Shown one piece after another: positions 4,329 through 54,958 of a DNA stretch of 64,000 nucleotides. The DNA comes from Vicinamibacterales bacterium. Lineage in GTDB: Bacteria > Acidobacteriota > Vicinamibacteria > Vicinamibacterales > CAVVIG01. The translations under genes were made by a program, and so were the position numbers. Position 1 is the first letter of the stretch. The number at the start of each line of letters is the position of its first letter. The stretch lies in the NCBI GenBank assembly GCA_965229885.1, contig CBDDJX010000002.1:202784-266783 (forward strand). Reading direction: 5' to 3'. The notes beneath the pieces are model-generated. The model ran no database searches, was not told the DNA's origin, and saw only the letters and a list, made by a program, of their open reading frames with translations.

Positions 4329-4381
4329 GGGACCCGCCCATTGTCACTGATTAAGATTTGTTTCCTGCAATCCCCAACGCC

Positions 4382-19331: not shown

Positions 19332-19366
19332 GGGGAAATTTCTATCGAGGGAAGGATGGGGACATT
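19332..19366 (+). repeat. IS1202-like subterminal repeats (GGGGAAATTTCT / GGGGACATT), truncated end
   Basis: Same motif as the IS end at 20234-20259. Confidence 0.45.
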
Positions 19367-19371
19367 ACCTA

Positions 19372-19636
19372 TGGCTCGCGCGCCATCCCCGCGTGCATCT
19401 CCACTACACCCCCACGCGGGCCAGCTGGCTCAATCAAATCGAGTGCTGGTTCAGTATCCTCAGTCGGCGGGCCTTGCAGGGCGCAAGCTTCACCTCGGTG
19501 CCGCAGTTACGCGAGGCCATCGACCGCTTCGTCAAGACCTACAATGCGCACGCCACGCCCTTCGAGTGGCGCAAGCGCGTGGTGCATTCCGTCGGGCTCA
19601 AGCATTATTACGCCGATTTGCGCAGCTAAGCACTAG
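19372..19636 (+). mobile_element. IS630-family transposase C-terminus and right end
   Basis: HYTPTRASWLNQIECWFSIL...PFEW; the end CACTAG lies at 19631-19636. Confidence 0.88.
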
Positions 19637-21620: not shown

Positions 21621-21699
21621 GCGCCGCTGCGGGCGATCGTCGCCACGACGCAGGACACGGCGACGACCTATGCGGAGGCGGCCGATCAGGCGGCGGCCG

Positions 21700-22979
21700 C
21701 GTGTCGAGCCATAAGTAAGTGTTACCGGGCGGCGCGTCGTCGCGCCATATTTGGTGTTACCGACGGGGAGAGGTCTTTGAGCGACAGGGCCGCGGAGACC
21801 CACGCGGTCTTTGCGTGTGTCTCCGCGGCCCCCGCCGTCGAGGGCACCAGCCCGCGCCGATGATTCGCGAGGGCATAGACCCGCGCGAGCTTGCGGTCAA
21901 TGCGCGCCGCGAGCGCGAACGGATCGAGCCGGTCCCGCTGGCGCACGAGCGCCACCACCTTCGCGGCGTGGGCCTGCGGGCAGGCCTGGACGCGCTCCAA
22001 CGGGGTCTGCGGCGCGTCGTAGTACCGGCGCCGGCGGGCGCCGATGCGTTCTTTGCGCTGGAGTTGCACCGACGGCAGAAAGAGATTCTGCAACAGCCGC
22101 AGGTCGGCCTACACATCGTTCATCGCTGCGAGGGCCCCCGCCGAGTCATACCGCACATAGCCCATCAGCTTCCGGACGTGGGTCCAGTTCTTTTGTTCGA
22201 TATGCGCGTTGTCGTTCTTCTTGTACGGCCGCCCCCCGCGCAAGTGGTCGAGCCGTTCCTGGACCCGGACCTGACTTTTCCTCATGACGGCGCCGTGTTC
22301 GACCCAGGTGGTCTGAATGTCGGTGAGATTCAGCGTATGGAGGAAGTCCCCATCGGCGCGGTCGCCCGAGTGACTCACCAGGTCCACCTCGGTGAAGCCG
22401 GGCTCGGTGACGTCCCAGTGATCGGTCTTGCCCAGAATGTGGTGCTTCAACAGCGGGCCGGGTTTGGTGCGCCCATACAGCCGTCAGCGGATCGTGCGCT
22501 GGTCGGGCGCCAGCAGGCGATCGATCTGGCGCGGGCTGATGGTGCGCACCTTCGCTTCGGTGGCGGGCGACACCGCGAGGCGGCGGCGGGCCCACGGCAG
22601 CCACGTCGGCAGCAGGGCCTTCAGGCGGCGGGCCCACGGATCGCCCGCCGCGACCCAGACCGCCCGGAGTGCCCGCACCCCCGCGGCGTCATAGCGCGTG
22701 GGTCGGCCCCGACGCGGGCCCCGCGGGGGCCGCACGGCTGGCCGCCGCCAGGCCCGAATGATCGCCTTCCGATGGTAGCCCGTCACCGTCACCGCCTCTG
22801 TGAGCACGCGCCCCTTCTTCGTCCGCGAGGCCCCCACGTACCGGTCCCGCATCGGCGCCAAATACTCCGGCCTTGCCTGTGGTCCCACGCGGGTGCCCTC
22901 CTGTGGCACACCCGCTTGGGTAACACCCTTTAGGGCGCGACGATCTTTCCTTCGGTCACACTTACCATGGCGCGATACG
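21700..22979 (-). mobile_element. ISNCY-type IS (rve/DDE core), copy 1, defective, 5-bp TSD GGCCG
   Basis: Imperfect terminal inverted repeats; GGCCG at 21695-21699 and 22980-22984; transposase motifs GFTEVDLVSH and PYKKNDNAHIEQKN; near-identical to 52654-53932. Confidence 0.92.
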
Positions 22980-23026
22980 GGCCGCTGCCCCTTTGCTGAT
23001 ACTCTGTTCAAATGGAGACCCCCGCA

Positions 23027-27509: not shown

Positions 27510-28616
27510 ATGGGCGTGACGACGATGTGTTTTGAGAAGCTGGGCGCGGGGCTCTGCGCCGGGATTGGGGCCTTGGTGCTACCGGCGTTGATGTCCGGCA
27601 CGGCGCCGGCGCAGACGCTCGCCGACCCGCCGGTTGCTGCTGCCGCAGCCGTGTCCGCCGCCCAGGCACCGGCGGGCGCGGGGACGGCCTTCTTCGAGAA
27701 TACGGAGCTTGGCGGGCTGGTCGATGCTTACTACGCGTGGTACTCGACGAAGCAACGGGTGTGTTCCATAGCTTCGACACGGCGCACAACCAGTTCCAGT
27801 TCACGCTCAGCATGGCGCAGGTCTGGCTTACCAAGGCGCCTGTGACGGAGTCGCGGATCGGCGGGAAGGTGAAGCTGAACTTCGGTCCGAGGGGCGACCG
27901 CCGTCAATTTCGCCGAGCCGAACAGCGATCTGGTGAACGTCGAGGAAGGGTTTGTCAGTTACCTCGCCCCGGCAGGCAAAGGGCTGCAGTTCGATGTCGG
28001 CAAATTCGTCACGACCGCGGGGGCCGAAGTCATCGAAGCCCAAGGACGACTGGAACTATTCGCGCTCGTTGCTGTTTCAGAATGCGGTTCCGTTCTACCA
28101 CGTCGGTGTGCGGATGACGTATGCCGCGAGCGACAGGGTCACGCTGTTGAGTGGTTTGATCAACGGCTGGAACAACGCAGTTGAGAACAACACGGGTAAG
28201 ACGGTGATGGGCTCGATCATTCTCAAGCCGACGGGCTCGTTCTCGGTCGTCGAGAACTACATTGGCGGCCCGGAGGGGGAGCCTGGCAACGATGACTGGC
28301 GTCACCTGAGCGACACGGTGGTCAGCTATACGGCGTCGCCGACGAGGCCGGCTTCAGCGGCGTGGCACAGAAGATTAAGGAATGCACGTTCACCGTGGAG
28401 TTGAAGCCCGCAGACAACTTCATGTGGCGTATCGAGTATTGCGGCGACTTCTCGAACGAAGCGGCCTTCATAACGGACAGTGGCACGACAAAGGACCGTC
28501 AGCACGAGTTCGTACTCGGGCTGCTGTACAACTTCAGTACCAAGCAGCAATCGGGGGAGGGCGGGCCCCTGAGCCGGTGTAAGGTTATGGCGGAGGAGAC
28601 TGCCGCCCGATGGTAA
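27510..28616 (+). pseudogene. Outer-membrane beta-barrel (putative porin), several frameshifts and a deletion
   Basis: Signal peptide, GGLVDAYYAW, QFDVGKFVT..G.EVIE, DDWNYSRSLLF, NGWNN and WRIEY..DFS pieces in at least four frames. Confidence 0.7.
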
Positions 28617-34775: not shown

Positions 34776-36462
34776 TTACGCCGCCAGCTCCTCCAGCGCG
34801 CGGACCCCGGAGCGCATGGAGAGCAGCCAGACCGCCACGCTCGACACGGTGGCGACCAGGAAACAACCAATCATCAGCAGCTGTTGCGCGGGCGCGGGCG
34901 GACGACCCTGGAGCCGTCGGAAAACATACAACGACGACGGCCACCCGATGAGCGCGATCATGACGATGACGAACAGCACCGCCTGAATCATGAAGGCGCC
35001 GCCGCCGAAGGAACCGGAGGCCTCGGCCGGATCGGCGCCGAGGCGTGGATAGCGGGCGCCCATCCCGGCGGCCAGTCCAACCAGGGCAAAACTCATCATC
35101 ACGACGGCAACTGCCGCCATCCCCTTCAAGAACGGATCGACGCCGAGAAACTCGTTGGCGGCAACCGTCACCAGTTCGGTCAACACCAGCACGGGAACGA
35201 GACCCGTCCAGAATTTCGACCAGAGAAAGTCGCGCATCGAGACGGGCGCCGTCCGGATGATCCAGAAGGAATGCCCTTCGACCGACACGGACGGGAAGAC
35301 GAACCGGACGGCGACCGTGGCCATCACGAGCCCCGCCATCCCAAGGTTCACGAGCGCATACAGGTTCTTGACGAAGCCGCTCATGTACGGAATGCGTTGC
35401 AGGTCGAGGACGCGGAAGTTGTACAGATACACGACCACGAGCGCGCACAGCAACAGAAGCTGCGACCATTGACTCACGTCGCGAAGGAACATCTTCAGGT
35501 CCTTGATCAGCAGCTGCTTTCTGACCGTCGTCAGCGGCAGCACATGCACGAGACGGTCGAGCGTCCGCAACTGCGTGAACCGCGCCTTGGGCGCCTCCTG
35601 CGCTCGGCTGAATCCGCTGAAGTACCATCGCTAACTCGCCGCTCGAACCACCACGATCGACCCGAGCGCCGTCGTCCAGAGCGCGCCGGCATGGAGCAGG
35701 TCGAACCCGCCGGTGAGGCTCGCGAAGAGGGTTTCGCCGGCCCAGAATGAGGGCAGCATCGGCGTGATGGGCGATTGCAGCGTGGCGAAGAAATCGGTGA
35801 TGTCCGGCAGCGATTCAACCTTCATCAGCTGTTCAGGCCGGATGAAGCGCAGGAGGATCACCAGGCTTGCCGCGAAGAGCAGTCCCATCAGCATGAGGAT
35901 GTCGCGGGCGCGGCGCGCGGGGAACGTGTTGACCAAACAGGAGCGTGATGATTGTCCCCGCCGCGACGGGAATGATGGTGAACGGCACCAGTGCGACAAT
36001 GGACGTCGCGTAGAACGCCAGCCCTGCGCAGCGCGCGTGCCCGACGCCCATCAGCACCGGCACGAGAAAGACGACGACCATCCACGAAGCCTGGCCGACG
36101 GTCCGCAGAAAGCGGGCATGAAACACGCGGCGTGTCGCGATTGGAGCGGCCAGGAGCAGGCGCAGGTCCTCGGAAAGAAAGAACGTCGACAGTGAGGTGA
36201 CGATCCCGCTGAACGCCAGGAACGATAAGAAGGTCAGGAAGAGCCATGACAAGCCGAGCCGGAGCAGGTAGTCGCCGAGGTCCTCGTAGCCTGCCAGTTG
36301 CGCAGTAAGCCAGAACGAACCCCGGTAAAGCAGCGCACATACCAGCAATCCAAGCCCGCCAAACACCGCGGCGTGCAGGCGCTCGCCGCGGTCGCCGCGC
36401 TGCGCGCGGTTACGGGACGACAGCACGTGCGGCAGCAGCAGGTACGGAAAGGCGTGGGCCAT
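34776..36462 (-). pseudogene. Putative ABC exporter permease, frameshift plus nonsense codon
   Basis: Multi-TM segments (TSLSTFFLSEDL, KDLKMFLRD.SQWSQ). Frameshift near 35940 and an in-frame TAG at 35631-35633. Confidence 0.75.
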
Positions 36463-37238
36463 CAGATGACTTCGTCGATCTCCTGGAGGGCGCTGCCGCC
36501 CGTCAGCTTCAGGAAGACGGTCGTCAGCTGCTCCGCGCTTCCCTCGGCGTTTTCCTCGGCTTGTCCGCCGCCCATCTGCCGCAGCTCGTCGACCGTCCCG
36601 TTCGCGATGATGCGGCCTTTCAAGATGATGCTGACGCGGTCGCACATCTCCTCGGCCACTTCCAGCGTGTGCGTGCTCATGAGAATTGCCACGCCGCGCT
36701 CACTCATTCGGCGGAAGACGTCCTTGATCAGGCGCGCGCCGCGGGGATCGAGACCCAACATCGGTTCGTCCACGACGACCGCGTGCGGGCGATGGAGGAA
36801 GGCGGCACACATCACGAGGCGCTGCTTCATGCCGTGAGAAAAGCTTTCGACCAGCTCGTGTCCCCAGCGTCCGAGCTCAAAGAGATCAAGCATCTCGCGC
36901 ACGCGCCCGTCAATCTCGTGTCCGTCCAGCTCGTACAGACCGCCGTGAAAGCGCAGGAACTCGCCGGCCGTCAGCTTTTCGTAGATGAACGGACGGTTCG
37001 GAATGAAGCCAAGCGACGCCTTTGCTCTTTCTGGATCGGTCGCCAGGTCGTGACCATTCACGAGAATGCGCCCGGAGGTTGGTTTGAGCAGGCCGGCGAT
37101 CATTCTGAGCGTCGTCGTCTTGCCGGCGCCGTTCGGACCGAGAAAGCCATGGATCTCGCCGGGAGCGACGGCGAGGCTGACGCCATCGACAGCCGTGAAC
37201 GCGCCGTACTGCTTGACGAGATCGTACAGGCCGATCAT
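36462..37238 (-). CDS. ABC transporter ATP-binding protein
   Basis: GPNGAGKTT, FSHGMKQRL, VVDEPMLGLDP and MSTH motifs. Confidence 0.93.
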   Translation of the reverse strand: MIGLYDLVKQYGAFTAVDGVSLAVAPGEIHGFLGPNGAGKTTTLRMIAGLLKPTSGRILVNGHDLATDPERAKASLGFIPNRPFIYEKLTAGEFLRFHGGLYELDGHEIDGRVREMLDLFELGRWGHELVESFSHGMKQRLVMCAAFLHRPHAVVVDEPMLGLDPRGARLIKDVFRRMSERGVAILMSTHTLEVAEEMCDRVSIILKGRIIANGTVDELRQMGGGQAEENAEGSAEQLTTVFLKLTGGSALQEIDEVI

Positions 37239-38858
37239 GGTTGTGACCGGCACGCGCAACACGAAGCGGGTCGCCGGATGGGAATCGACAGAGCGCCCAG
37301 GTCGACAGGCGGCGCCTCGCCGGCGAGGATCGGCGTGGCGCCAGGCGCGAGCTCCAGATCGAGCACAGTCATCTTCAGCCGTCCGATCAGCGGGAGAATC
37401 GCCGTTTGTTTCTCGAGGCCGCCGCGCGCCAGGCGCACGTGGGTCGCGTCGGCGGGGAACTGGTTGAACGCTGGATCGACGGGCAGCCACAAACCTCGGT
37501 CGGATCCTTCGTCGACATAGACTTCCGGCCAGGCGTGGTAGTAGAACGCACCGCGGACGAACACCAGACCGACGACGATCCGCGCCGGGATGCCCAATGC
37601 CCGCGCCATCGCAACATAGAGCGCCGTGTGCTCGTTGCAGTCGCCGACTTTCGTGCGGAGTACTTCACGCGCCGACGGAATACTCACGGTCGGCTTCTTG
37701 TCGAGGAGGTTGTTGACGTACCTCGTGAGCCGCTCGGCGCGCGCGCGGACACCGCTGGAAGCCACGACGCCGCGGACGGCGATCTCGGCTTCGGCGAGGA
37801 TCTCAGGCGCGTCGCTTTCGATGAGCGCTTCTGGCGCGAGGTACTGCGACGCAGTGGCGTCGGCACGCTCGGCGCCGAGCTCCCGCGGATCGTGGAGCTC
37901 GATGATGTCGCCGTCGATCGTCTGGCCGGCGCCCTGAAGGTCTGGGCTCGACAGATCGGCGCCTTCCAGTCGAATGCGAAGACGTCGCACGTCGCACGTC
38001 GCGCGGCTCGTCGATGCGCTGCGTCATGATCGGCACGACGGCCGCCGCGTCGAGCAGATCGGCTCGTACGCCTCCAGGGACGGCGGTGTTCCGTGCGCGG
38101 TCTGCCGACTCGCGCACGGTCATCAGCCCCATCGGGCTTTCTTCCCGCACGACATCGCCAGTGTCGGTGATCCAGGCGGTTGTCCGCAGGCCGCTGAACG
38201 CCATCTCCACGCGGAACGCGGGGATCGGCGTGCCGGCCGAGCGGACGAACTCGCGCTTGCCAACCTCGATGGTGACCGGCGCGTTGTGAAGCGTGGCGGG
38301 ATCGAACAGCGTCCAGTGGTGCCTGGCGCCGGCCACAAGCCCACCGTTCGCCAGACGGCGCGACAGGTTCAGCGACAGCGCGGGCGGTTCATCGAGCTCG
38401 CGCACTTCGGTCCGCGTGCCGGACGACGTCGTCACGTCGAGCGTCAGCCGGCGGCCGTCCACTCGGCCTCGTACAGTGGTCGGCCCGGTACCAGGATCCA
38501 GCGAGAACTCGAACGAGCGTAGCGCAAAGCTCGCGTCGACGATCGCGGTCGTATGGATCGTCGCGGCCGTGATCGCGCCGAGCAACGACATCTGCAGCCG
38601 CCCGTCTTCGTTGAGCTCGAATCCTTCGTCTTTCGGAAGCGTCTGGCTGACCGTGAAGCCAATCTTTTCGCCCCGGTAGTACACGCCGCGCCATACGGCC
38701 GCCGACCCGTAGCGTGCGAGGTCCGTCGCCAGGTTGGCAGAAGACGCCTGCAGGTACGAGCGATTCACCAGGGCGGCCATCGTTGCGATCCAGGCCAGTA
38801 CGACGAGAATGGAGATGGGACGAGTAATGGTGCGGGGCAACGGCCGGAGCAGGCGCAT
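37235..38858 (-). pseudogene. Transglutaminase-like domain protein, frameshifted by a 7-bp tandem duplication
   Basis: GDCNEHT, YHAWPEVY and VDP catalytic-triad motifs; N-terminal anchor; break at 37983-37996. Confidence 0.85.
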
Positions 38859-38907
38859 TTTTCATGTGTATCGGTGTTTCGACCTGCGCGCCGTAGGGTT
38901 CGCGTGC

Positions 38908-39337
38908 CTATTCGATCGTCGGCCCACGCAGCGCCGGGCAGAACGTTTCGTACGTGCTGGCGATCAGGAAGAATAGTTGCTGCCGGCTTTCGACCCGCTG
39001 CCCGCGACGCCGCCTGGAAACGGCATGATCACGCCGGGCACCGAGGCGATCGCCGCCCATCAGCCCCTCGCGACAGCCAAACCGGCGGTTGATCACGAAC
39101 TCGCCCACGAGGATGGGGATGACCCACACGGGTCGGCCGTGACGCACGTCGCGACACGGGTAGCCGTTGCCGAAGTCGGCGATCTTGCGACCCAGCTTGT
39201 AGTAGGGATCGGTGTCGAGCCGGCTGAAGCACGCCGCGGTCGGGCCCCGCCACGCAGTCGCACATAATCGTAGAGGACGCGTTGCCCGTGGCCGCGTGGA
39301 CCGCATGATCGAGCCAGGTGCGATCGCGCGCCGTCAT
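38908..39337 (-). pseudogene. fhcD: Formylmethanofuran:H4MPT formyltransferase (Ftr/FhcD) relic
   Basis: TARDRTWLDHAVHAATGNASSTIMCDC.AG, GEF.INRRFG.REGLMGG, VIMPFPGGVAGSGSKAGS and ASTY..FCP.LR in shifted frames. Confidence 0.75.
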
Positions 39338-39972
39338 CGCTGCTCGCGAGCATCCCGCCCGCGGCCTTGATAAACCGTTTTCTCGGTGACGACCTTGTCC
39401 ATGTAGACGTCGTGAGGGCTGACGACCAGCTCGGGAAAGAGCTGACATTCGTAGGCCAGCGCGACGAGTGGCGCCTCAGGACGCACGCGATCGAGGAGGC
39501 GATCGTAGTAGCCCTGGCCGTTCCCCATCCGCGCGCCGTCGCGCGTAAAGCCCACGCCTGTCACGATGACCAGATCCAGTTCGCGCGGGTCGACTTCCTT
39601 GTCGCGGTCGCCCCATCGCTCTTTCGGCGGCTCAAGGATCGACCACTTGCCGACGACGAGCTCGTCCATGCTCGTGAGATGCCACAGACCAAGCTTGTTC
39701 GAGCCTCGGTCGTCCACGGTGCAGTACGGGACGACGATCTTCTTGGCGCCCTTCAGCGCATCACCCAGCTGATGCCGCATCCGCACTTCAGAGCGCACGT
39801 CGAGGTACCACATTGCCGTGTGCGCGGCGGCGTACTCGGGCAGGGCGATGAAGCGCTCGATGATCGCTTTGGACACGTCGTCCTTGTTGTCCTGCGCATT
39901 GCGGGCGTCGTAGCCCTGCCGGCGCAGCTTCGCCTTGCGGTCTCCAAGCGTCTCAGCGGTCTCGTTGGCCAT
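39334..39972 (-). CDS. 5-formyltetrahydrofolate cyclo-ligase
   Basis: YLDVRSEV, VVPYC, ILEP, DLVIVTGVGF...GARMGNGQGYYDRLL and HDVYMDKVVTE motifs. Confidence 0.92.
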   Translation of the reverse strand: MANETAETLGDRKAKLRRQGYDARNAQDNKDDVSKAIIERFIALPEYAAAHTAMWYLDVRSEVRMRHQLGDALKGAKKIVVPYCTVDDRGSNKLGLWHLTSMDELVVGKWSILEPPKERWGDRDKEVDPRELDLVIVTGVGFTRDGARMGNGQGYYDRLLDRVRPEAPLVALAYECQLFPELVVSPHDVYMDKVVTEKTVYQGRGRDAREQR

Positions 39973-40015
39973 CTTGCCTATCCTAACCTTGCCGCTTTGC
40001 CGTTGTGAACGATCG

Positions 40016-41326
40016 TCAAGCGGCAGCGATCACGACATCCATCACGTTCGTGCCTGTCGGCCCCGTCTTGATCAACGCGTCGACCGATGCGAGAGCTGCG
40101 TGCGAGTCATGACGCTGAAGATCGCTGTCTGGATCCCGACCCGCCGCCGCGATGCGTTCCCACGTCGTGCCATCCACGATCGCGCCGGCGGCATCGGTCG
40201 GACCATCGCGGCCGTCGGTTCCCGCCGCGAGAAGCGCCACCGTGGGTATTCCTCGCAGGACTCGAGCTGCCGCCAGGGCCAACTCCTGGGATCGCCCGCC
40301 TGATCCCGTGCCCTGCTCGGCCATCGTCACCGTCGTCTCACCGCCGAGAATGAGGCAGCGGGACAAATGACCCTCGTGGCGGCCGGCCAGAAGTCTTTCC
40401 ACGATACGCGCGCCCGCGATTGCCGCCTCTCCAACGATCGGCCGGTCGACAATCTCGGGAACGAGACCGGCGGCGCTTGCGCGCCGGCCTGCCGCTTCGA
40501 GCGCGAGACGATTGGTCGCAATCAGCGTGCTCGCGACCCGGTCGAAAGCAGGGTCGCCTGGCTTCGGCGTCTCCGGAACGCGGCCCCGATCGACGTCATG
40601 CAGATACTGACGAAGTGAAGGACCCAGGCGGTCCCAGAGGGCTGCGCGAACGAGCACGTCGCGAACATCTCGCGCCGTGGACGGGTCGGGGACCGACGGC
40701 CCTGAGCCGATCGCGGCGAGATCGTCGCCGATGACGTCCGACATGATGTAGCAACAGAGCCGCGCATGCGCGAGGCTCCGCGCGAGGCGGCCACCGCCCC
40801 AGCGCGTAAAGCGTTTGCGCACACGGTTCATCTCCCTGATGTCGAGGCCCGACCAGAGCAGCTGGCCGTAAAGCGCCTTGAGCTCGTGAGGCGCGATGCC
40901 CGGCTGCGGCGCGCCGATGAGACTTGTCGTACCGCCTGAGAGCAGCAGCCACACGGTGTCGCCAGGCGGAATCTTCTTCACCAGACGATCGAGCGCGTCG
41001 GCAGCCGCGAGCGATCCCGCGCCGGGCTCTGGATGATCGCCCACGATCACCGCGACGGACGGATGGGGCGCGGACGTGTTGACGGTCGCGACGATGAGCC
41101 CGCCGGCAGGGGCGCAGCCCCTGGGGTCCTGAAGGCCACCTGCCGCGAGGACGCGTACTGCCGCTTCCGCCATCGGCTGTGCGGCTTTGCCGAGGGCAAT
41201 CAGCCAGACGCGGTCGTCGCGCGGTTCGTTCTGCAGCGCGCGCATGAGCACGGGGCCGGGGGCAACGGCGGCGACCGCCGCCTGGTAGATCTCGATGAGC
41301 AGCGTTTTCGCGTCGGCGCGATTCAT
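40016..41326 (-). CDS. gck: Glycerate 2-kinase (DUF4147/MOFRL family)
   Basis: ALGKAA, HPEPG..SL.A, LSGGTTSL, SDVIGDDL..IGSGP, GGETTV, GGRSQELAL, GTDGRDGPT and TGPTGTNVMD motifs. Confidence 0.9.
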   Translation of the reverse strand: MNRADAKTLLIEIYQAAVAAVAPGPVLMRALQNEPRDDRVWLIALGKAAQPMAEAAVRVLAAGGLQDPRGCAPAGGLIVATVNTSAPHPSVAVIVGDHPEPGAGSLAAADALDRLVKKIPPGDTVWLLLSGGTTSLIGAPQPGIAPHELKALYGQLLWSGLDIREMNRVRKRFTRWGGGRLARSLAHARLCCYIMSDVIGDDLAAIGSGPSVPDPSTARDVRDVLVRAALWDRLGPSLRQYLHDVDRGRVPETPKPGDPAFDRVASTLIATNRLALEAAGRRASAAGLVPEIVDRPIVGEAAIAGARIVERLLAGRHEGHLSRCLILGGETTVTMAEQGTGSGGRSQELALAAARVLRGIPTVALLAAGTDGRDGPTDAAGAIVDGTTWERIAAAGRDPDSDLQRHDSHAALASVDALIKTGPTGTNVMDVVIAAA

Positions 41327-41426
41327 AGTAATATTCCAGTCCTCCCCCTCGGTGCCAAGGGGCTTGCCTGAGCGGCGGCAACCGCGCCCGGCCAGCACAC
41401 TCTAGCCAAGCGAAGCGAGAACTGTC

Positions 41427-42583
41427 ATGCCAGGCCGTAGTTTTCGGTTTGTTCCGGGACCGACGAATGTTCCCGATCGCGTCCTGCGGGCGATGCACGT
41501 CGCGATGGAGGATCATCGTTCATCGAGTTTTCCTTCGTTGACGAAGCCGCTGTTTAACGATACTCAAGAAGATCTTCAAGACCGAATCGGGCCAGTGCTT
41601 TATCTTTCCCGGCTCCGGCACCGGCGGCTGGGAAGCGGCCCTCACGAATACGCTGTCGCCTGGCGATAAGGCGTTGTCTGCCCGCTACGGGCAGTTCAGT
41701 CATCTCTGGACCGATATGGCCGTGCGGCTCGGGCTCGACGTGCAGCTGCTCGAGGCCGAGTGGGGCGAGGCCGCGCCGGTCGAGCGGATTGCCGAAGCGC
41801 TGGCGGCCGATACCGCACACCAGATTCGCGCGGTCATGATAGTGCACAACGAGACCGCCACGGGCGTGAGGAGCGATGTCGCGGCTGTTCGCAACGCGCT
41901 TGATGCCGAGACGCATCCCGCGCTGCTGTTCGTCGACGGCGTCAGCTCGATCGGTGCGATCGATTTCCGGATGGACGAATGGAAGGTCGATTGCGCCGTC
42001 ACTGGTACGCAGAAGGCGCTCGCTCATGCTGCCGCCGGGCCTAGGGATCGTCTGCGTCAGCCCGAAGGCGCTCGCGGCCGGCGACCAGACCAGGCTAGCA
42101 CGCGTGTTCTTCGACTTCACGGATCAGATCAACCAGAACGCGATCGGCTACTTTCCCTGTACGCCCGCCGTGCCGATGCTGTACGGGTTGCGTGAGTCGG
42201 TCGCGATGCTGCTCGAGGAGGGGCTCGCCGCCGTCTTCGCTAGGTACCATCGTCTGGCCGAAGGCGTTCGCGCGGCGGTCAGGGCCTGGGGCCTCGAGCT
42301 GTGCGCGGGCGCGCCGAAGTCGTACTCGGATACCGTCAGCGCCATCATGGTGCCGCCGCAGGTCAAGGGCCAGGACGTCATCGACATCGCCTACCACCGG
42401 TACAACCTGTCCCTTGGGGCCGGCTTGTCAAAAATGGCCGGGAAGCTGTTCCGTATCGGCCATATGGGCGACCTGAACGAGCTGATGCTGCTTGGCGCGC
42501 TCGCCGGCGCCGCCGAAGAGTACTGGCGACAATCGACCGCCGCCGCACAGTCCGTCGCGGTGGGAGCCGGCACGAAGGTATGA
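41427..42583 (+). pseudogene. sgaA: Serine-glyoxylate aminotransferase (class V), several frameshifts
   Basis: PGPTNVPDRV, HNETATGV.SD, VDGVSS, GTQKAL (PLP Lys), FRIGHMGDLNE; frame breaks near 41565, 41630 and 42030. Confidence 0.85.
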
Positions 42584-43557
42584 CGAGCGCCAGACGAGCG
42601 AGCGTCCCGGTGGTCGTCGTCACCAGGAAGATTCCCACTGCCGTCGAACAGGAAATCGCCGCCCTGTTCGAGGCGCGGCTCAACCCGAACGACACACCGA
42701 TGACCGTTGACGCGCTCAAGGAGGCGATGCGAACCTCCGACGTCGTGTTGTGCTCGGTGGCCGACAAGATGACGGCCGACATCATCAACACGCCAGGCCG
42801 CACAGTGAAGCTGCTGGCGAATTTCGGTGTGGGGTTCAACAACATCGATATCGCGGCGGCGAAAGCCGCCGGCGTGCTCGTCTCCAATACACCGGACGTC
42901 CTGACGGAAGCGACGGCGGATCTCGCGATGACGCTGCTGCTCATGACCGCGCGCCGCGCGGGCGAAGGGGAGCGCCTAGTGCGAGGGGGGCGGTGGACCG
43001 GATGGCGGCCCACGCACATGATGGGGACGATGGTGACCGGCAAGACGATCGGGCTCGTCGGTTTCGGCCGGATCGCCAGGGCGGTGACGAAGAAGGCCCA
43101 CGACGGGTTCGGGTTGCACGTGATCTTCCACGATCCGCTCGTGCCGAACGGATCGCTCGGCGCGGCGCCGCGCGCCAGCCTCGAGGAGCTGCTCGGAGAG
43201 GCGGACTTCGTCTCGTTGCATTGCCCGGCCCTCCCCGAGACGCGTCACCTGATGAACGCGCAGCGGCTCGGCCAGATGAAGAAATCGGGCATCCTGATCA
43301 ACACGGCCCGCGGCGACGTGGTGGACGAAGCGGCGCTCGTGGCTGCGCTGCAGAAGGGGCAGATTGCCGCGGCGGGGCTCGATGTCTTCGAACGTGAGCC
43401 GAACGTCACGCCCGAGCTGTTGAAGATGGAGAACGTCGTGCTACTGCCGCACTTGGGAAGCGCGACGCTCGAGACCCGCGAGGCGATGGGCAGAAGGGCG
43501 CTGGAGAACATCCAGCGCTTTGTCTCCGGCGCCTCGCTGCGCGATCGCGTCGTGTAG
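42580..43557 (+). CDS. D-glycerate dehydrogenase / hydroxypyruvate reductase-like 2-hydroxyacid dehydrogenase
   Basis: FGVGFNNID, NTPDVLT, GLVGFGRIA, NTARGDVVDE, DVFEREP and LPHLGS motifs; ATGA overlap with sga. Confidence 0.88.
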   Translation: MTSARRASVPVVVVTRKIPTAVEQEIAALFEARLNPNDTPMTVDALKEAMRTSDVVLCSVADKMTADIINTPGRTVKLLANFGVGFNNIDIAAAKAAGVLVSNTPDVLTEATADLAMTLLLMTARRAGEGERLVRGGRWTGWRPTHMMGTMVTGKTIGLVGFGRIARAVTKKAHDGFGLHVIFHDPLVPNGSLGAAPRASLEELLGEADFVSLHCPALPETRHLMNAQRLGQMKKSGILINTARGDVVDEAALVAALQKGQIAAAGLDVFEREPNVTPELLKMENVVLLPHLGSATLETREAMGRRALENIQRFVSGASLRDRVV

Positions 43558-43573
43558 CGCGTCGGTAAAGCGC

Positions 43574-43723
43574 TCAGTGCCACAGGATGTATTCATTCGC
43601 CTCATGAAATCTGACGCGCCCTCGCGCCGCCAGCTCGAGGAGGTCGCCTTCCTCCATGGCCTGAAACGGCGGATGTTTCTTGAGGAAATCGGCGATGCGA
43701 TAGCTGATAGCGGAAGTATCCAT
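43574..43723 (-). pseudogene. N-terminal fragment of a cyclic-nucleotide-binding-domain protein
   Basis: MDTSAISYRIADFLKKHPPFQAMEEGDLLELAARGRVRFHEANEYILW then stop; resembles the start of cNMP/CBS proteins. Confidence 0.55.
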
Positions 43724-43871
43724 TGTGAGAGGACGGTTGAATATGGCGAGAGAGTCGTGCGGACGTCCATCTAAGGATGCAGCGAAACCCCCTATAATGG
43801 ACCTTCAACCGTTGACGCCGGCCTGCTAGCGGGCGTAACCTTTACAACTCTCTCGGAAAGGAGAACCGTTC

Positions 43872-44978
43872 ATGGTGAGTTCCCTACGCGTGAAACTCGG
43901 GCTTCTCGTCGCCTTCGTCGTGCTCGCCTCTCTGACTCCGTCCTCGGCCTTGCAGGTTGCGCAGACCGGCCAGGGCCCGGTGCTGGAGTCCATTGGACCG
44001 CTGGCCTTCGGTCCTGACGGCACACTGTTCACCGCGGACAACCAGGGCGCCGCGATCTTCGCTCTCGACCTCGGTGCGCTGGCCAACGGCGGCGCCGCCG
44101 GGGTAAAGGGCCTCGATGCGCTGGATGAAAAGCTCGCCGCCCTGCTCGGCACCGGCGCGCGGGAAATCACTGTCACGGACCTCGCCGTGCATCCGCGCAC
44201 GCGGAATGCCTACGTGTCCGTGATGCGCGGACAGGGCGCCGGCGCGGCGCCGGCCCTGTTCCGGATCGACGGGGCGGGCAACATCGCCAACGTGTCGTTG
44301 CCGACGCTCCGGTTCCAGAAGGTCGAGCTGCCGAACGCGCCGGTCGCCAACACGACGGCTCGGACGAATCCGCGAACCCAGGTCATCACCGATATGGCGT
44401 TTGCCGACAGCCGCCTGTGGGTCGCGGGCCTCTCGAACGAGGAATTCGCGTCCAAGCTCCGCGCGATCCCGTACCCGTTCGCCACCGTCGACCGGGGCGT
44501 GAGCGTTGAGATTTACCATGGCAACCACAAGGCCGTCGAGACGCGGTCGCCTGTCAACGCGTTCGTCCCGTACACCCTCAACAACCAGCCGTACCTGATC
44601 GCCGGCTACACGTGCACGCCGCTCGTCAAGTTCCCAATCTCCGACCTAAAGGCGGGCGAGAAGGTGCGCGGCACCACCATCGCGGAGTTCGGCGGCGGCA
44701 ACCGGGTGCTCGACATGATCGTGTATCGCAAGGGTGGTCAGGAATTCCTGCTCACGGCGAACAATAGCCGTGGGGTCATGAAGATCCCCACCAGCACGTT
44801 CGCTAGCGCCACGCCGATCACCACCCCCGTGGAGACGGAGACGGGCGGCGTTCCGTTCGAGACGGTCACCAGCATGACGGGCATCGAGCAGCTCGACAAG
44901 CTGGACGATAACAACTCGATCGTGATCGCGCGCACCGCCGCCGGCGGGATCAACCTCCAGACCATCCCCCTTCCGTAA
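43872..44978 (+). CDS. Uncharacterised secreted protein, possibly a beta-propeller
   Basis: Signal peptide; LESIGPLAFGPDGTLF, GLSNEEFASKLR and AGYTCTPLV; strong coding bias. Confidence 0.75.
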   Translation: MVSSLRVKLGLLVAFVVLASLTPSSALQVAQTGQGPVLESIGPLAFGPDGTLFTADNQGAAIFALDLGALANGGAAGVKGLDALDEKLAALLGTGAREITVTDLAVHPRTRNAYVSVMRGQGAGAAPALFRIDGAGNIANVSLPTLRFQKVELPNAPVANTTARTNPRTQVITDMAFADSRLWVAGLSNEEFASKLRAIPYPFATVDRGVSVEIYHGNHKAVETRSPVNAFVPYTLNNQPYLIAGYTCTPLVKFPISDLKAGEKVRGTTIAEFGGGNRVLDMIVYRKGGQEFLLTANNSRGVMKIPTSTFASATPITTPVETETGGVPFETVTSMTGIEQLDKLDDNNSIVIARTAAGGINLQTIPLP

Positions 44979-46159
44979 TGAGGGTCCGCCTGCGGTCGGT
45001 CGCGGCGGTGACGAGTTCGCTCATCATCGCCGCGGCCTGCGGCGGCCGTTCCACCGGATCCGCTTCCGATCCCGCCATCAGGCTGACGACCCCGCAGAAC
45101 GGCGGAACCGCGTACGTCGAAGTCGCCGGGTTGTCGGGCGCGGCGCTCGCCGCGCTAAGAGATGCGGAGCTCACGGCCGACCAGTGGTCCCTCGTCCTTC
45201 GTGTGTCGGTGAATGACGATGCCCCGGGCATGCTCGGCCAGTACAGCGTCGCAGACGAAGCGCTGCGATTCACGCCCTTGTACCCTCTGGACCCCGGCCG
45301 TCAATATCGGGTGCGGTTCGATCCGGCGCGCCTGCCGGGGGCCGGCGGTTCAAGCGCCGCCGCGGTCGTCGCCAGCGTCGGACAACCGGCGCAGCACACG
45401 ACTTCTTCGACCGTGGTGGCCCGCGTGTATCCGACGAGCGACGTCCTCCCGGAAAACCTGCTGCGAATGTACGTCGAATTCTCTGGCCCGATGGGGCGAC
45501 CGAGCGGCATCCAGCACATGAAGCTCGTCGACGACAGCGGCAAGGAGATCCCTGGGGCGTTCCTGCCGCTCGGTTACGAGTTCTGGAGCCCCGATCACAC
45601 ACGCTTCACGGCATTCTTCGACCCGGGCCGCGTGAAGGGGGGCATTCTGCCGAACCAGCAGATGGGGCGCGCGCTCAATTCGGGGCGGTCGGTGACGCTG
45701 GTCATCAGCAGCGAGTGGCGCGATCAACACGGGCTGCCGCTCAAGGAAGACTTCAGGCGGGTGCTGCGCGTTGGTCCTGCCGAGGAGAAGCCGCTCGATA
45801 CGGCCTCGTGGCGCATCCAGCCACCGCGGGCTGCCGGGCGGCGCGACGGGGTCGTCGTGACCTTCCCCGAACCGCTCGACCACGGCCTGCTGATGCGCGC
45901 GCTCGGCGTCACCCGTGAGGACGTCCCCGTCGAGGGCGACATCCTCGTCGACAACGCGGAAACGCGGTGGACGTTCACGCCGCGCGAGAGGTGGCGCACC
46001 GGCATATATCACCTGCTCGCGCTCGATATCCTGGAGGACGTCGCCGGCAATCAGATCGGCCGCGCGTTCGAGGTCGACAACTTCGATACCGTCGACAAGA
46101 GTCCCAACCCGAAGAGCATCACGATCCCCTTCAGCGTCGGGGCAGCCGGCACCGATTAG
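44978..46159 (+). CDS. Uncharacterised lipoprotein with Ig-like segments
   Basis: Lipobox IAAA-C; VYPTSDVLPENLLRMYVEFS.PM, FFDPGRVK and TFPEPLDH; TAATG coupling to the upstream gene. Confidence 0.75.
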   Translation: MRVRLRSVAAVTSSLIIAAACGGRSTGSASDPAIRLTTPQNGGTAYVEVAGLSGAALAALRDAELTADQWSLVLRVSVNDDAPGMLGQYSVADEALRFTPLYPLDPGRQYRVRFDPARLPGAGGSSAAAVVASVGQPAQHTTSSTVVARVYPTSDVLPENLLRMYVEFSGPMGRPSGIQHMKLVDDSGKEIPGAFLPLGYEFWSPDHTRFTAFFDPGRVKGGILPNQQMGRALNSGRSVTLVISSEWRDQHGLPLKEDFRRVLRVGPAEEKPLDTASWRIQPPRAAGRRDGVVVTFPEPLDHGLLMRALGVTREDVPVEGDILVDNAETRWTFTPRERWRTGIYHLLALDILEDVAGNQIGRAFEVDNFDTVDKSPNPKSITIPFSVGAAGTD

Positions 46160-49108: not shown

Positions 49109-49138
49109 ACGCATATGTTTGACCCTTGGATGGTGAAT

Positions 49139-50168
49139 ATGCACACAAAGATAAAGGTATTCATAATACCGCTGGGCGTCGGCCTCACCGTCTGCGCGGC
49201 GGCGTTGATGGTGCGGACCGCACAACAGAAGGCTGACACGAGCAACCTGATCGCGGGTCCGGCGGCGTTCATCGACTACCGCGCGATGAAACCCGGGACC
49301 TTCCGGAAGATTACGGCGGCGGATTTGCCCAGGCCGTATGCGACCCGTTCGGTCGGCAACGCGCCGACGCTCGTGCCTCGGCCGGCCGGCCGGAGCGGAT
49401 ATCGGTCTTTGCGACGGGCCTGAGGCAGCCGTACGGAATCGCGTTCTATCCGCTCGGCGCGAGTCCACAGTGGGTAAACATCGGCAACACGAATTCGATC
49501 GTGCGATTCGCCTACAGGAACGGTGATCTCAAAGCCAGCGGCGCGGCCGAAACCGTCGTTGGGAACTGCCGGCAGGGGGCGCCCACTGGACCCGCGACGT
49601 CGTGTTTTCGAAAGACGGAAGAGCGATGTTTGTGGCGGTCGGCTCGGCGTCGAACGTCGATGACCCCGACGAGACGCGTGCGGAATTCCACCGCGCGAGC
49701 ATTCTTCAATTCATACCGGAGGGCGCCTTCGTCAAGGTGTACGCGTCTGGCATTCGTAACGCGGGAGGCGGGCTGGCCATCAACGCGAACGGGTGAGCTC
49801 TGGTGCTCGACCAACGAGCGCGACAGTCTTGGCGACGACCTCGTGCCCGACTACATCACGCACGTGCGCGAGGGCGGTTTCCACGGGTGGCCCTGGTATT
49901 ACATCGGCGACCATCAGGACCCGCGCCACGAAGGCAAGCACCCGGAGCTCAGAACGCAGGTCGTCGTTCCCGACGTCTTGTTGTCGCCGCACAACACGGA
50001 TCGTGGAATCGCGCGAATCGGACCGGCTACGAATTGATTCGAGTCCCGATCGTCGACGGACATGCGACCGGAGAGTTCCAGGATTTCATGACGGGATTCG
50101 TCCTGCCGAATGGCGACGTGTGGGGAAGGCCCGTGGCCGTCGCCGTGGCCAGCGACGGCTCGTGGTGA
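49139..50168 (+). pseudogene. PQQ-dependent sugar/sorbosone dehydrogenase, deleted and frameshifted
   Basis: QPYGIAFYP, VGSASNV, SGIRN, LWCSTNERD.LGDDLVPDY, GWPWYY and GRPVAVAVA.DGS in at least five frame segments. Confidence 0.85.
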
Positions 50169-51057: not shown

Positions 51058-51086
51058 GGTTCAATCTTACGCCTGGCCTCATTGTG

Positions 51087-51935
51087 TTAGAAGAACTTTC
51101 GGGCGCGAGGTTGAATCCCATAAATAGCGCGCGCGGAACCCCACTCCGCGCCATCTGCGCGAACGTCGTACCCTGGCCGTTGCCGAAGTTGAGCTGAAAG
51201 CAGGTGGCGGCCCGCGCGCTTCTCGATGCCGAAGGCAAACGCCGGCTCATCGGGTTTGTAACCGGCAACCCGCGGCGATGTTTCGGCGACGACGTACACC
51301 GTCGGGTTGAGCCGCAGCCGGCCGCCGACGCCGACGAAGAACGTGTCGCGATCGATGTTGAGGATGGCGGCCGTGTTGTGCACCCAGATCGGTGTCGCAT
51401 ACATCGCGAAGCGGTCGCCAACCGTTCGCGACACGACCGCTCCCAGGGCGGGCGAATACCGATCCTGGAAGTTGTTGCCGCCCTCAATGGATACGAGCGC
51501 TGATATCGAGAGCGGCGTCGATTACCGCTGATGCACGGCGTCGTACTTGCCATAGAACTGAAAGGTCTTGTCTACGGCTGCGCGGTAAGCGGCCGCCTGC
51601 ACATGCCGCGCGATCCCGAAGCGGTACTCGAAGCCGACGACGGCGCCTTGATCGAGACCGAAGAGATTGCTGGCCTGCTGACCAAAGCTACCGTTCCTCA
51701 GATTGCCGTTGAACCGGTGGGTGAGCTGAAAGTTCGATCCGTGCCGCGGAAGCCTCAGGGTCGTCGGCAGAGCGATGACGCGAAAATCAGGTTCGGCGAA
51801 CCGCAGCGAACGGTCGTTGTCGGCAGCCGCCGTGGCGGGAGCTGCAGCCGATTGCGCCTGCGCAGAGTCAACGTCGAGACCCGCGACTCCCAGGAATCCA
51901 ATCGAGACAAAGCGAGCGAGCATGTGCGTCGTCAC
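51087..51935 (-). pseudogene. DUF5777-like beta-barrel protein, deleted and frameshifted
   Basis: AEPDF.VI.LPTTLRLP, QLTHRF, LFGLDQGA, SIEGGNNFQD and FGIEKRAG.H in different frames. Confidence 0.65.
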
Positions 51936-52114
51936 GCGCCTGCGCAGAGCAAGCCGGGGACCATCGGCACGCGGGCCATTGTGTCATCAAACGGCCCACA
52001 ATCCGATCGAAGTCGCGGATGGCGTTACGCGTTTCGTAACTGCTTGCCTGGCCCTGGATCCAGGTTTTCGTGTGGGCCCTAAACCTTCACGCTGGTCGTT
52101 CCGGTAGGCCGGCC

Positions 52115-52592: not shown

Positions 52593-52653
52593 TCGGCGAA
52601 TCTGGTGTATGAGACTGCCAATCTGGAGGGTAGCACGACAATCTCGGTTTCCC

Positions 52654-53932
52654 CGTATCGCGCCATGGTAAGTGTGACCGAAGGAAAGATCGTCGCGCCC
52701 TAAAGGGTGTTACCCAAGCGGGTGTGCCACAGGAGGGCACCCGCGTGGGACCACAGGCGAGGCCGGAGTATTTGGCGCCGATGCGGGACCGGTACGTGGG
52801 GGCCTCGCGGACGGAGAAGGGGCGCGTGCTCACAGAGGCGGTGACGGTGACGGGCTACCATCGGAAGGCGATCATTCGGGCCTGGCGGCGGCCAGCCGTG
52901 CGGCCCCCGCGGGGCCCGCGTCGGGGCCGACCCACGCGCTATGACGCCGCGGGGGTGCGGGCACTCCGGGCGGTCTGGGTCGCGGCGGGCGATCCGTGGG
53001 CCCGCCGCCTGAAGGCCCTGCTGCCGGCGGGCTGCCGTGGGCCCGTCGCCGCCTCGCGGTGTCGCCCGCCACCGAAGCGAAGGTGCGCACCATCAGCCCG
53101 CGCCAGATCGATCGCCTGCTGGCGCCCGACCAGCGCACGATCCGCCGACGGCTGTATGGGCGCACCAAACCCGGCCCGCTGTTGAAGCACCACATTCCGG
53201 GCAAGACCGATCACTGGGACGTCACCGAGCCCGGCTTCACCGAGGTGGACCTGGTGAGTCACTCGGGCGACCGCGCCGATGGGGACTTCCTCCATACGCT
53301 GAATCTCACCGACATTCAGACCACCTGGGTCGAACACGGCGCCGTCATGGGGAAAAGTCAGGTCCGGGTCCAGGAACGGCTCGACCACTTGCGCGGGGGG
53401 CGGCCGTACAAGAAGAACGACAACGCGCATATCGAACAAAAGAACTGGACCCACGTCCGGAAGCTGATGGGCTATGTGCGGTATGACTCGGCGGCGGCCC
53501 TCGCAGCGATGAACGATGTGTAGGCCGACCTGCGGCTGTTGCAGAATCTCTTTCTGCCGTCGGTGCAACTCCAACGCAAAGAACGCATCGGCGCCCGCCG
53601 GCGCCGGTACTACGACGCGCCGCAGACCCCGTTGGAGCGCGTCCAGGCCTGCCCGCAGGCCCACGCCGCGAAGGTGGTGGCGCTCGTGCGCCAGCGGGAC
53701 CGGCTCGATCCGTTCGCGCTCGCGGCGCGCATTGACCGCAAGCTCGCGCGGGTCTATGCCCTCGCGAATCATCGGCGCGGGCTGGTGCCCTCGACGGCGG
53801 GGGCCGCGGAGACACACGCAAAGACCGCGCGGGTCTCCGCGGCCCTGTCGCTCAAAGACCTCTCCCCGTCGGTAACACCAAACATGGCGCGACGACGCGC
53901 CGCCCGGTAACACTTACTTATGGCTCGACACG
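52654..53932 (+). mobile_element. ISNCY-type IS (rve/DDE core), copy 2, defective, 5-bp TSD TTCCC
   Basis: TTCCC at 52649-52653 and 53933-53937; terminal IRs CGTATCGCGCCATGGTAAGTGTGACCG and (reverse complement) CGTGTCGAGCCATAAGTAAGTGTTACCG. Confidence 0.92.
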
Positions 53933-53937
53933 TTCCC

Positions 53938-54740
53938 TACGCTTCGCCGGCGCGCTCGCGACCCTGGTTCTGTGGTCGCCGCCGGCGTCGGCTCAGTCGC
54001 CGACCCAGTCAGGCCAGCCTCCAGTCCAGACATGCCAGCTGGGGACTCTGCGGCTCGAGCGCGGCGAGTCGATTCCGACTTCCGGATGACATGCATCACC
54101 TTCGGCACGCCGAACGCCGCGCGCAGCAACGCTGTCCTCCTGATTCACGGCCTACGAGGGAATAGGGACAGTCAGAGCACGTGGGCCGGACCGGGGAAAG
54201 CCTTCGACACCAGCCAGTACTTCGTGATTCAGCCCGACACGCTTGCATCCGTTTCACCCGACCCGAATGCGACGACCTCACCGACCCGCGCGGGTCTCGG
54301 CATGCGATTTCCTCGCTTCAGCAATCGCGACGTGGTCCAGGCGGAACACCGGATGCTCACCGAGTGCCTCCGCCTGTCGCACCTTGTCGCAGTGTCCGGT
54401 ACGTCGATGGGCGGCATCGAGTCGATGCAGTGGGCGGTCAGCTATCCAGACTTCATGGACGCCGTCATCCGATCGTGCCCCAGGCGTTCGCGGCAAGACA
54501 GTCCGTGTTCATCTGGGAGGCCGCTCGACGCGCGATCATGTCGATCCGAAATGGATGGGTGGGACGTATCCCGCGAACGACCCGCCGCGCGCCGGCGTGG
54601 CGGCGGGACTCACCGTGCAGACGGCGTTCGGCTCCTCGTCGGCCGCTTTCGACAAGAACTTCCAGACGAGGGAGGCCGTCCTCGCGTTCTATCAGTCGCC
54701 GGCGGACGCGCGCGACTGGGCATTCTGGATGATCGCTGAC
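53938..54740 (+). pseudogene. Secreted alpha/beta hydrolase (homoserine acetyltransferase-like fold), IS-interrupted, frameshifted and truncated
   Basis: NAVLLIHG, GPGKAFDT.QYFVI, FPRFSNRDVV and SGTSMGG nucleophile elbow; the 5' end lies at about 52605-52653, on the other side of the IS. Confidence 0.8.
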
Positions 54741-54872: not shown

Positions 54873-54958
54873 TGGTGCGGAAGCGGGGATTTGAACCCCG
54901 ACCCGATTACTCGGACTAGCTCCTGAGGCTAGCGCGTCTGCCGTTCCGCCACTTCCGC
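54873..54958 (-). tRNA. tRNA-Leu(CAG)
   Basis: GCGGAAG acceptor stem, D-loop GGAACGGCAG, anticodon loop CTCAGGA, long variable arm, TTCAAAT T-loop, encoded CCA. Confidence 0.97.

Follow-up and report, generated by a model that had tools for sequence, protein, structure and literature searches.

We analysed a 64,000-nucleotide stretch of DNA from a Vicinamibacterales bacterium (contig CBDDJX010000002.1, positions 202,784 to 266,783; hereafter, the window). Positions 38908–43557 of the window carry sga, hpr and gck, which belong to the families of serine-glyoxylate aminotransferase, hydroxypyruvate reductase and glycerate 2-kinase, together with a 5-formyltetrahydrofolate cyclo-ligase (MTHFS-like) gene and a remnant of ftr/fhcD, the formyltransferase gene of the tetrahydromethanopterin (H4MPT) pathway. 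We conclude that this is very probably a conserved chromosomal locus of the Vicinamibacterales (Acidobacteriota) with an ancestry linked to one-carbon (C1) metabolism, which was recently pseudogenised amid genome-wide decay. As a cluster it is of a known kind, here in pseudogenised form. An earlier note on this DNA had described a candidate methylotrophy island in the process of loss. Its five gene calls were correct and their positions held in Pfam and tblastn searches. Further, three-frame translations and comparison with relatives agreed with its division of the genes into broken (sga and ftr) and intact (gck, hpr and the cyclo-ligase).

Results

Layout of the locus and identity of its genes

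Two operons diverge at the locus: the plus strand carries sga-hpr and the minus strand gck-MTHFS-fhcD. The references used most often below are L007, the closest genome locus, which belongs to an Acidobacteriota metagenome-assembled genome (MAG), L087, a locus of a Vicinamibacterales MAG, and a sister lineage recovered from metagenomes. The features are as follows.

38908–39338, minus strand: ftr/fhcD relic (pseudogene), identified by tblastn with the L087 Ftr, blastn against L007, a sister-lineage contig and sub-threshold Pfam matches
39334–39972, minus strand: 5-formyltetrahydrofolate cyclo-ligase (MTHFS-like), intact, 212 amino acids (aa), identified with Pfam PF01812 and NCBIfam TIGR02727
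40016–41326, minus strand: gck, MOFRL-type glycerate 2-kinase, intact, 436 aa, identified with Pfam DUF4147 and MOFRL
41327–41426, no strand: divergent intergenic region between gck and sga, 100 bp, with promoter-like hexamers for the minus-strand operon
41427–42583, plus strand: sga pseudogene (serine-glyoxylate aminotransferase family; class-V aminotransferase), identified from three-frame translations and alignment with L007
42580–43557, plus strand: hpr, D-2-hydroxyacid dehydrogenase of the GyaR/GhrB type (hydroxypyruvate/glyoxylate reductase), intact, 325 aa, identified with Pfam and NCBIfam

The MTHFS-like protein scored 128 bits against the Pfam domain 5-FTHF_cyc-lig (PF01812), which it covered completely (1–186 of 186), and exceeded the equivalog cut-off of TIGR02727 (MTHFS_bact; 121.2 bits vs 84.9). 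It was 81% identical to its L087 counterpart over the full length, with a ratio of nonsynonymous to synonymous substitution rates (dN/dS) of 0.18. The open reading frame (ORF) of gck, 40016–41398 on the minus strand, matched DUF4147 (195 bits) and MOFRL (127 bits). Its likely start is the ATG at 41326, which is preceded by the Shine-Dalgarno sequence GAAGGAGAGG. Gck was 79–80% identical to the L087 and L007 proteins over the full length, and two Logan contigs have gene calls for an identical protein. The ORF of hpr, 42301–43557 on the plus strand, encodes a 2-Hacid_dh protein (2-Hacid_dh_C, 203 bits; 89–90% identical to those of L087 and L007), and the real start of this gene, at 42580, overlaps the stop codon of sga (ATGA). 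NCBIfam placed the enzyme in the GyaR/GhrB type, as the earlier note had supposed when it said that the dehydrogenase looks like the generic GyaR type. Orthologues of hpr lie within the serine-cycle clusters of the loci L011 (Gemmatimonadota) and L123 (marine), and this context supports the roles of hpr and gck as hydroxypyruvate reductase and glycerate 2-kinase.

The divergent sga/gck arrangement was kept in L007, L087 and the Gemmatimonadota loci described below. The promoter-like hexamers between the two genes came from a consensus scan, which is weak evidence alone, and none of the RNA runs held the locus.

sga and fhcD are inactivated by several lesions each

The sga gene is spread over three reading frames, as seen in translations of 41427–42583. 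Compared with the L007 orthologue, it carries an additional A at 41562, between a T and a C, a tandem duplication of CGCT at 42017–42020, two codons after the motif TGTQK with the pyridoxal phosphate (PLP)-binding lysine, and an in-frame deletion of 57 bp after 42507, by which 19 conserved codons were lost. The intact L007 orthologue scored 480 bits against a serine-glyoxylate aminotransferase of known structure (PDB 6pk1); thus, the window does hold an orthologue of this enzyme, in a broken form. We also considered programmed frameshifting as the cause of the split frames of sga but rejected it, as two different insertions and a deletion are involved and the sister lineage, at 96% identity, has none of them. 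After frame correction, sga had a dN/dS of 0.17–0.23 against L087 and L007, no higher than that of the intact genes, which indicates that the inactivation was recent.

Of the ftr/fhcD gene (about 0.93 kb), about 415 bp remain. Four parts of the gene are gone from the relic, namely its start codon, its 3' end and two segments in between, and a single base has also been deleted near 38970. Against Pfam, the 132-aa ORF at 38908–39306 on the minus strand gave only sub-threshold matches (FTR, 22.5 bits with a cut-off of 27; FTR_C, 18 bits). In tblastn with intact orthologues (L087 Ftr), however, the relic matched at E = 5e-39 and 5e-15 in two frames, so its homology is not due to chance. In L007, a full-length Ftr of 316 aa, whose start overlaps the stop codon of the cyclo-ligase (ATGA), exceeded the cut-off of the fhcD equivalog TIGR03119 (323 bits vs 292.6), and blastn against this gene showed that two blocks alone are left in the window. 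Across the relic, the sister-lineage contig has an additional 207, ~65, ~161 and ~63 bp and one G after 38970. The window therefore does not encode a functional Ftr/FhcD at this locus. Judged from these reading frames, the locus of the window can encode neither the transamination nor the formyl transfer.

The lesions are genuine

We considered whether the frameshifts and the truncated ftr were errors of one assembly, an explanation that now has next to no probability. In its favour, related MAGs that appear to derive from long reads show apparent frameshift errors, among them splits of gck in L007 (10576–10578), L084 (8057–9369) and L088 (3425–4735). These three assemblies look long-read or low-coverage and the splits in them are probably assembly errors; accordingly, the frameshifts of the window were checked against independent runs. 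A Logan contig, which is a different assembly, was 100% identical to the window at 37119–45910, over 8792 bp without a gap. Four runs that differ in their organism and study labels yielded contigs spanning 38800–43600, none with an insertion or deletion and none with more than one substitution. In another ENA contig (cyclo-ligase 99% identical), sga was fragmented in the same way and no ftr gene had been called. The lesions also appeared in the variant from a seawater metagenome. Further, the insertions lie outside homopolymers, the A between T and C and the CGCT as a duplication, and the lesions of ftr are deletions of 63 to 207 bp. The recurrence of the lesions in independent runs shows that the frameshifts are not assembly errors.

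The lesions postdate the split from a sister lineage

A sister lineage was present in two freshwater metagenome runs (X18 and X19), with ~96.4% DNA identity to the window (~3.6% divergence). Its sequence was read from Logan contigs. The closest relative with intact genes, the contig P0123 (ERZ1305449), was read through its gene calls. The sister contigs lack both the +1 and the +4 insertions in sga and have kept the 57-bp segment. On the P0123 contig of ENA (cyclo-ligase 96% identical), the sga gene (402 aa), the FTR gene (308 aa) and the transglutaminase-like gene next to it (512 aa) are all intact. Since the sister lineage is free of the lesions, all eight lesions of sga and ftr are recent and limited to the lineage of the window; they arose after the split from the ~96% identical sister. 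In L087 and L007, ftr and the transglutaminase gene are separated by an ORF of 182 aa that is missing from the window. As the sister is also without it, it is not counted as a loss of the window's lineage.

Near-identical DNA, with 0–1 differences in 4.8 kb, was found at a depth of 2–16x in runs of ten studies whose labels name at least seven different coded organisms, and also in a seawater metagenome (runs X1–X20 surveyed). This distribution suggests a lineage in early genome decay that is associated with hosts or is widely carried in some other way, or else a contaminant that keeps recurring.

Related clusters link the serine-cycle genes with C1 genes

The same divergent sga|gck core was found in four Gemmatimonadota loci (L006, L008, L010 and L011), in the order ppc-hpr-mtkB-mtkA-mcl-sga|gck. 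Their malate-CoA ligase beta subunit scored 696 bits against an equivalog cut-off of 604. The proteins shared with the window were 57–72% (Sga, by fragment), 52–55% (Gck) and 62–65% (Hpr) identical. In contrast to the window, these clusters have mcl, mtkAB and ppc between sga and hpr, and no MTHFS-fhcD pair follows gck. The cluster matches the methylotrophy that was proposed for soil Gemmatimonadetes (Butterfield et al. 2016; PMC5103831).

A second arrangement, MTHFS-FhcD-FolD-Sga-Mcl-MtkA-MtkB-Hpr, occurred in at least 11 marine loci of low G+C content (L109–L111, L119, L123, L124, L126, L127, L135, L138 and L145; Gammaproteobacteria according to their NCBI names). As in the window, the MTHFS-FhcD pair is linked with orthologues of sga and hpr. 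Unlike in the window, the genes are all intact and share one strand, they include FolD, Mcl and MtkAB, and the G+C content is 0.33–0.45. No gck was seen within the stretches retrieved. The repeated linkage of the serine-cycle entry genes with the formyl-level pair, in different arrangements, supports a C1 signature, and its recurrence across phyla argues for a functional connection. In two 'Myxococcaceae' MAGs (L003 and L004), gck was 61% identical and neither sga, hpr nor ftr was nearby.

The earlier note had called the combination of serine-cycle, tetrahydrofolate and H4MPT genes a signature of methylotrophy clusters. Such clustering was indeed seen in the Gemmatimonadota, in the marine loci labelled Gammaproteobacteria and in one relative in which the MTHFS-FhcD pair lies inside a full cluster for H4MPT/methanofuran biosynthesis, with MCH. 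The note had also named the outcome that would speak against it, namely relatives with the intact cluster and no other C1 genes, and proteins that group with salvage enzymes of non-methylotrophs. As mtkAB, mcl, ppc, FolD and MCH were all found in the clusters of relatives, this check did not refute the note's claim.

In Methylorubrum (Methylobacterium) extorquens AM1, the serine-cycle genes form the clusters sga-hprA-mtdA-fch and mtkA-mtkB-ppc-mcl, together with gckA. The likeness to the locus is one of gene content, in that three consecutive steps (Sga, hydroxypyruvate reductase and glycerate 2-kinase) are clustered with enzymes acting on C1 carriers. The differences are that the window and the loci of its closest relatives lack mtdA/fch, mtkAB, mcl and ppc, and that the block of the window has a GyaR/GhrB-type reductase, an MTHFS-like gene and a stand-alone fhcD, with its sga and fhcD dead.

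The MTHFS-like gene is the upstream partner of fhcD

Metagenome contigs were scanned with an FhcD alignment, which returned 80 loci, 68 of them with at least 500 bp upstream. An MTHFS-like gene lay directly upstream of fhcD on the same strand in 56 of these 68 loci, often with a 4-bp overlap (the pairing was observed among the relatives' loci L083, L085–L087 and L090–L168), and it preceded the stand-alone fhcD in all seven contexts that were inspected singly. In the loci with high G+C content, the pair adjoins mfnB and MCH. Neither fhcA, fhcB nor fhcC was recognised within 10 kb of fhcD in five Pfam-annotated contexts.

The earlier note had treated the cyclo-ligase as a separate folate C1 enzyme. 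Instead, the MTHFS-like gene is a conserved, often translationally coupled, upstream partner of fhcD and not an independent folate gene. It resembles the bacterial MTHFS proteins (PDB 1ydm, 1sou and 2jcb) in passing the MTHFS_bact equivalog and in its full Pfam domain, and its subfamily differs from them in its position directly upstream of fhcD. The Ftr of L007 aligned over the full length with archaeal Ftr (PDB 1ftr, 1m5h and 1m5s) and with 6s6y chain D, which we take to be FhcD of the formyltransferase/hydrolase (Fhc) complex of M. extorquens. By score, this intact orthologue was closer to the archaeal chains (~236 bits) than to 6s6y_D (188 bits). Unlike FhcD of the Fhc complex, the stand-alone orthologue is preceded by the MTHFS-like gene, and the copy in the window is a relic. 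Literature searches on fhcD/H4MPT with MTHFS, and on fhcD with folD and the serine cycle, returned nothing on this pairing.

C1 genes missing from the window and from the loci of its nearest relatives

Among the genes of a serine-cycle cluster, the window holds hpr and gck at the family level; mtkAB, mcl and ppc had no match at E ≤ 1e-3 anywhere in its 64 kb (tblastn with L011 proteins). Likewise, tblastn with L083 proteins found no MCH, MfnB, RimK-like, CitG-like, PTPS, ATP-grasp, pterin-binding, DUF447 or GHMP kinase gene in the window. These searches used 14 reference proteins from relatives, with fae, mtdB and fhcABC not among the queries. folD was found neither in the window nor in the nearest relatives' loci (L007/L084, L087 and the P0123 contig), in which mtkAB, mcl, ppc, mch and H4MPT biosynthesis genes were also missing and the flanking genes were unrelated. 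No gene for primary C1 oxidation (methanol, methylamine or methane) was seen in Pfam scans of the focal ORFs and about half of the remaining ORFs of the window. Overall, the earlier note's interpretation is supported in part, and the locus testifies to decay of the genome and not to methylotrophy at work.

The locus is native to the chromosome

The earlier note's term 'island' was not borne out. The G+C content of the locus (0.647–0.664) is the same as that of its flanks and falls in the range of the window (0.61–0.68). No tRNA or integrase gene lies at its borders; the only RNA gene detected in the window, tRNA-Leu(CAG) at 54873–54958, is 11 kb away. L007 is collinear with the window at 34776–43557, and the gene order was conserved in L007, L084, L087 and the P0123 contig (Vicinamibacterales/Acidobacteriota). 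A horizontally acquired genomic island is ruled out by the native G+C content, the lack of a tRNA or integrase border and the conserved synteny.

A 1.3-kb insertion sequence (IS) is present in two inverted copies, 21681–22981 and 52652–53951, that are 98–99% identical, differ by one indel and bracket 29.7 kb including the locus; the transposase frame itself is spread over three frames. The two copies could be the ends of a segment, transposable or invertible, with which the cluster arrived, but we regard this as very improbable. The synteny with relatives is confined to 34776–43557 and does not match the segment between the copies, the G+C content is uniform, and the copy at 52652–53951 corresponds to an empty site in the sister lineage, so that this insertion is recent and the locus ancestral.

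Decay extends beyond the locus

Four of the eight genes in the 8.8-kb block at 34776–43557 are dead, whereas all genes of the block are intact in L087. In addition to sga and ftr, the following features show or suggest decay.

34782–36462, minus strand: ABC_tran_2 permease, frameshifted by a +1 insertion at ~35936 (tblastn in two frames; the sister lacks the base at 35936/7)
37190–38858, minus strand: transglutaminase-core protein, frameshifted by a +7 insertion near 37982 (tblastn in two frames; the sister lacks the 7 bases)
4355–4870: partial Lactamase_B, profile positions 34–132 of 196 (Pfam)
14249–14689: partial DinB, profile positions 106–157 of 165 (Pfam)
19276–19629: partial DDE_3, profile positions 104–146 of 146 (Pfam)
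27937–28616: partial BBP2 porin, profile positions 117–218 of 339 (Pfam)

The transglutaminase-core gene is a single ORF of 512–581 aa in L007, L087 and the sister lineage. The permease has 561 aa in L087 and is also intact in the sister lineage; in the window, one piece of it covers only positions 257–540 of the 542 of the Pfam profile. The ABC ATPase gene beside it (36465–37238) is intact. The four ORFs with partial domains are probably further gene fragments. Since unrelated neighbours are broken and IS copies were gained, these changes point to a general burst of pseudogenisation rather than the selective loss of one module. We therefore infer that the locus is going in a genome-wide burst. 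The earlier note's view of a module being lost is upheld as to the loss, with sga and ftr dead, and is not upheld as to its being specific to the module.

Some further observations concern the region between the locus and the tRNA gene. Short ORF fragments on the same strand lie at 49109–49796, downstream of a gene of the nitroreductase family; the sister has one additional base at 49561 and two at 49783, by which the gene of the window is frameshifted twice. The 1001 bp at 51076–52076 are missing from the sister, which has 16 other letters there. Within this segment, a DUF5777 beta-barrel gene appears as two abutting ORFs (51087–51521 and 51522–51983), which suggests that it carries an in-frame stop codon. 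Several small indels of the sister (54467, 54539 and 55025) lie in the gene-poor stretch just upstream of tRNA-Leu(CAG).

Discussion

From family and context, the following pathway can be proposed for the intact relatives. Sga would transaminate serine and glyoxylate to hydroxypyruvate, the GyaR-type reductase would convert this to glycerate and the MOFRL kinase would form 2-phosphoglycerate, so that the trio would make up the entry branch of the serine cycle. The MTHFS-like/FhcD pair, presumably co-transcribed, would act on formyl-level C1 units on pterin and methanofuran carriers. We lean, with some reserve, towards a role of the intact locus in C1 assimilation; plain serine/glyoxylate salvage is rather unlikely. 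In the window, gck, hpr and the MTHFS-like gene either persist through glycerate/glyoxylate and folate housekeeping or have merely not yet been hit.

The notion that the cluster of the window still supports growth on C1 compounds is hardly tenable. Its gene set is like that of clusters combining the serine cycle with H4MPT genes, and three of the five genes are intact. Against this, sga is broken up into three frames just after the PLP-lysine motif and has lost 19 conserved codons, and fhcD has neither a start nor a 3' end and has two internal gaps. Further, the window lacks mtkAB, mcl, ppc, mch, folD and the genes of H4MPT biosynthesis, and the native G+C content and conserved synteny are not those of an island. 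It is harder to dismiss that the locus was never a C1 module in this order, with sga-hpr-gck serving serine catabolism or glyoxylate/glycerate salvage and MTHFS-FhcD a mere neighbour, although we think this improbable as well. The hpr is of the generic GyaR/GhrB type, and truncated C1 machinery of unclear use, lacking upstream C1 oxidation, has been reported from the UBA6911 Acidobacteria (bioRxiv 10.1101/2021.04.09.439258). However, the four Gemmatimonadota loci have this sga|gck core embedded in a full serine-cycle cluster, and the marine loci again link sga, hpr and MTHFS-FhcD, in another order.

Several points weigh against our interpretation of a C1-linked locus that is going in genome-wide decay. 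The cluster of the closest intact relatives is without mtkAB, mcl, ppc and folD and has unrelated flanks, so a complete serine cycle may at no time have operated through the trio in this order. The metabolic roles are read from homology and context alone. Gck matched the NCBIfam glycerate 2-kinase models below their cut-offs, and Hpr scored 284 bits against the NCBIfam glyoxylate reductase, for which the cut-off is 455. The top model of the L007 Sga orthologue was BhcA (aspartate-glyoxylate aminotransferase), at 579.7 bits and thus below the cut-off of 650. A place in the beta-hydroxyaspartate cycle is not indicated, as no genes of the bhcB, bhcC or bhcD type were recognised in the loci examined and the neighbours were hpr, gck, mcl and mtkAB. 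The genome-wide extent of the decay is extrapolated from a single window, which covers 64 kb of a contig of 3,227,893 bp (~3.23 Mb), and a second intact sga or fhcD may lie elsewhere.

The pairing of the MTHFS-like gene with fhcD and the very recent, heavy decay of this Vicinamibacterales lineage are by-products of the analysis that reach beyond the locus itself. As for the pairing, a speculative and doubtful possibility is that the MTHFS-like protein and the stand-alone Ftr/FhcD form an undescribed two-step bridge by which formyl units would reach the folate pool from methanofuran with no free formate as an intermediate. Ftr would move the formyl group from formyl-methanofuran to N5 of a tetrahydropterin, possibly tetrahydrofolate, the ATP-dependent cyclo-ligase would close the N5-formyl product to the 5,10-methenyl form, and FolD or MtdA would reduce the latter for serine synthesis. 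Such a bridge would replace the route via the Fhc hydrolase and formate-tetrahydrofolate ligase. The idea was prompted by the adjacency of the pair in most loci, of both Acidobacteriota-like and marine Gammaproteobacteria-like lineages, the marine row with FolD and serine-cycle genes and the lack of recognisable fhcABC nearby. 5-Formyltetrahydrofolate is a by-product and an inhibitor of serine hydroxymethyltransferase, and it is at least as likely that the MTHFS-like enzyme beside fhcD merely removes it, which is the plainer explanation.

Genome decay of the kind seen here is usual in bacteria that were recently restricted to a host or passed through severe bottlenecks. A literature search for pseudogene-rich symbionts among Vicinamibacter/Acidobacteriota found no such case. 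The window offers a dated snapshot of this process, with four of eight adjacent genes inactivated and IS copies gained since a split that now amounts to ~3.6% divergence from the intact sister.

In a scan of the genome, sga, ftr and the genes around them would be taken for C1 capacity. As sga and ftr are dead, metabolic reconstructions must not credit this lineage with the serine cycle or with H4MPT-linked formaldehyde oxidation on the basis of this locus. In the wider family of such loci, the widely conserved MTHFS-Ftr pair, which in several phyla is linked with FolD and genes of the serine cycle, provides a lead on how formyl groups may be transferred between the methanofuran/H4MPT and folate branches of C1 metabolism.

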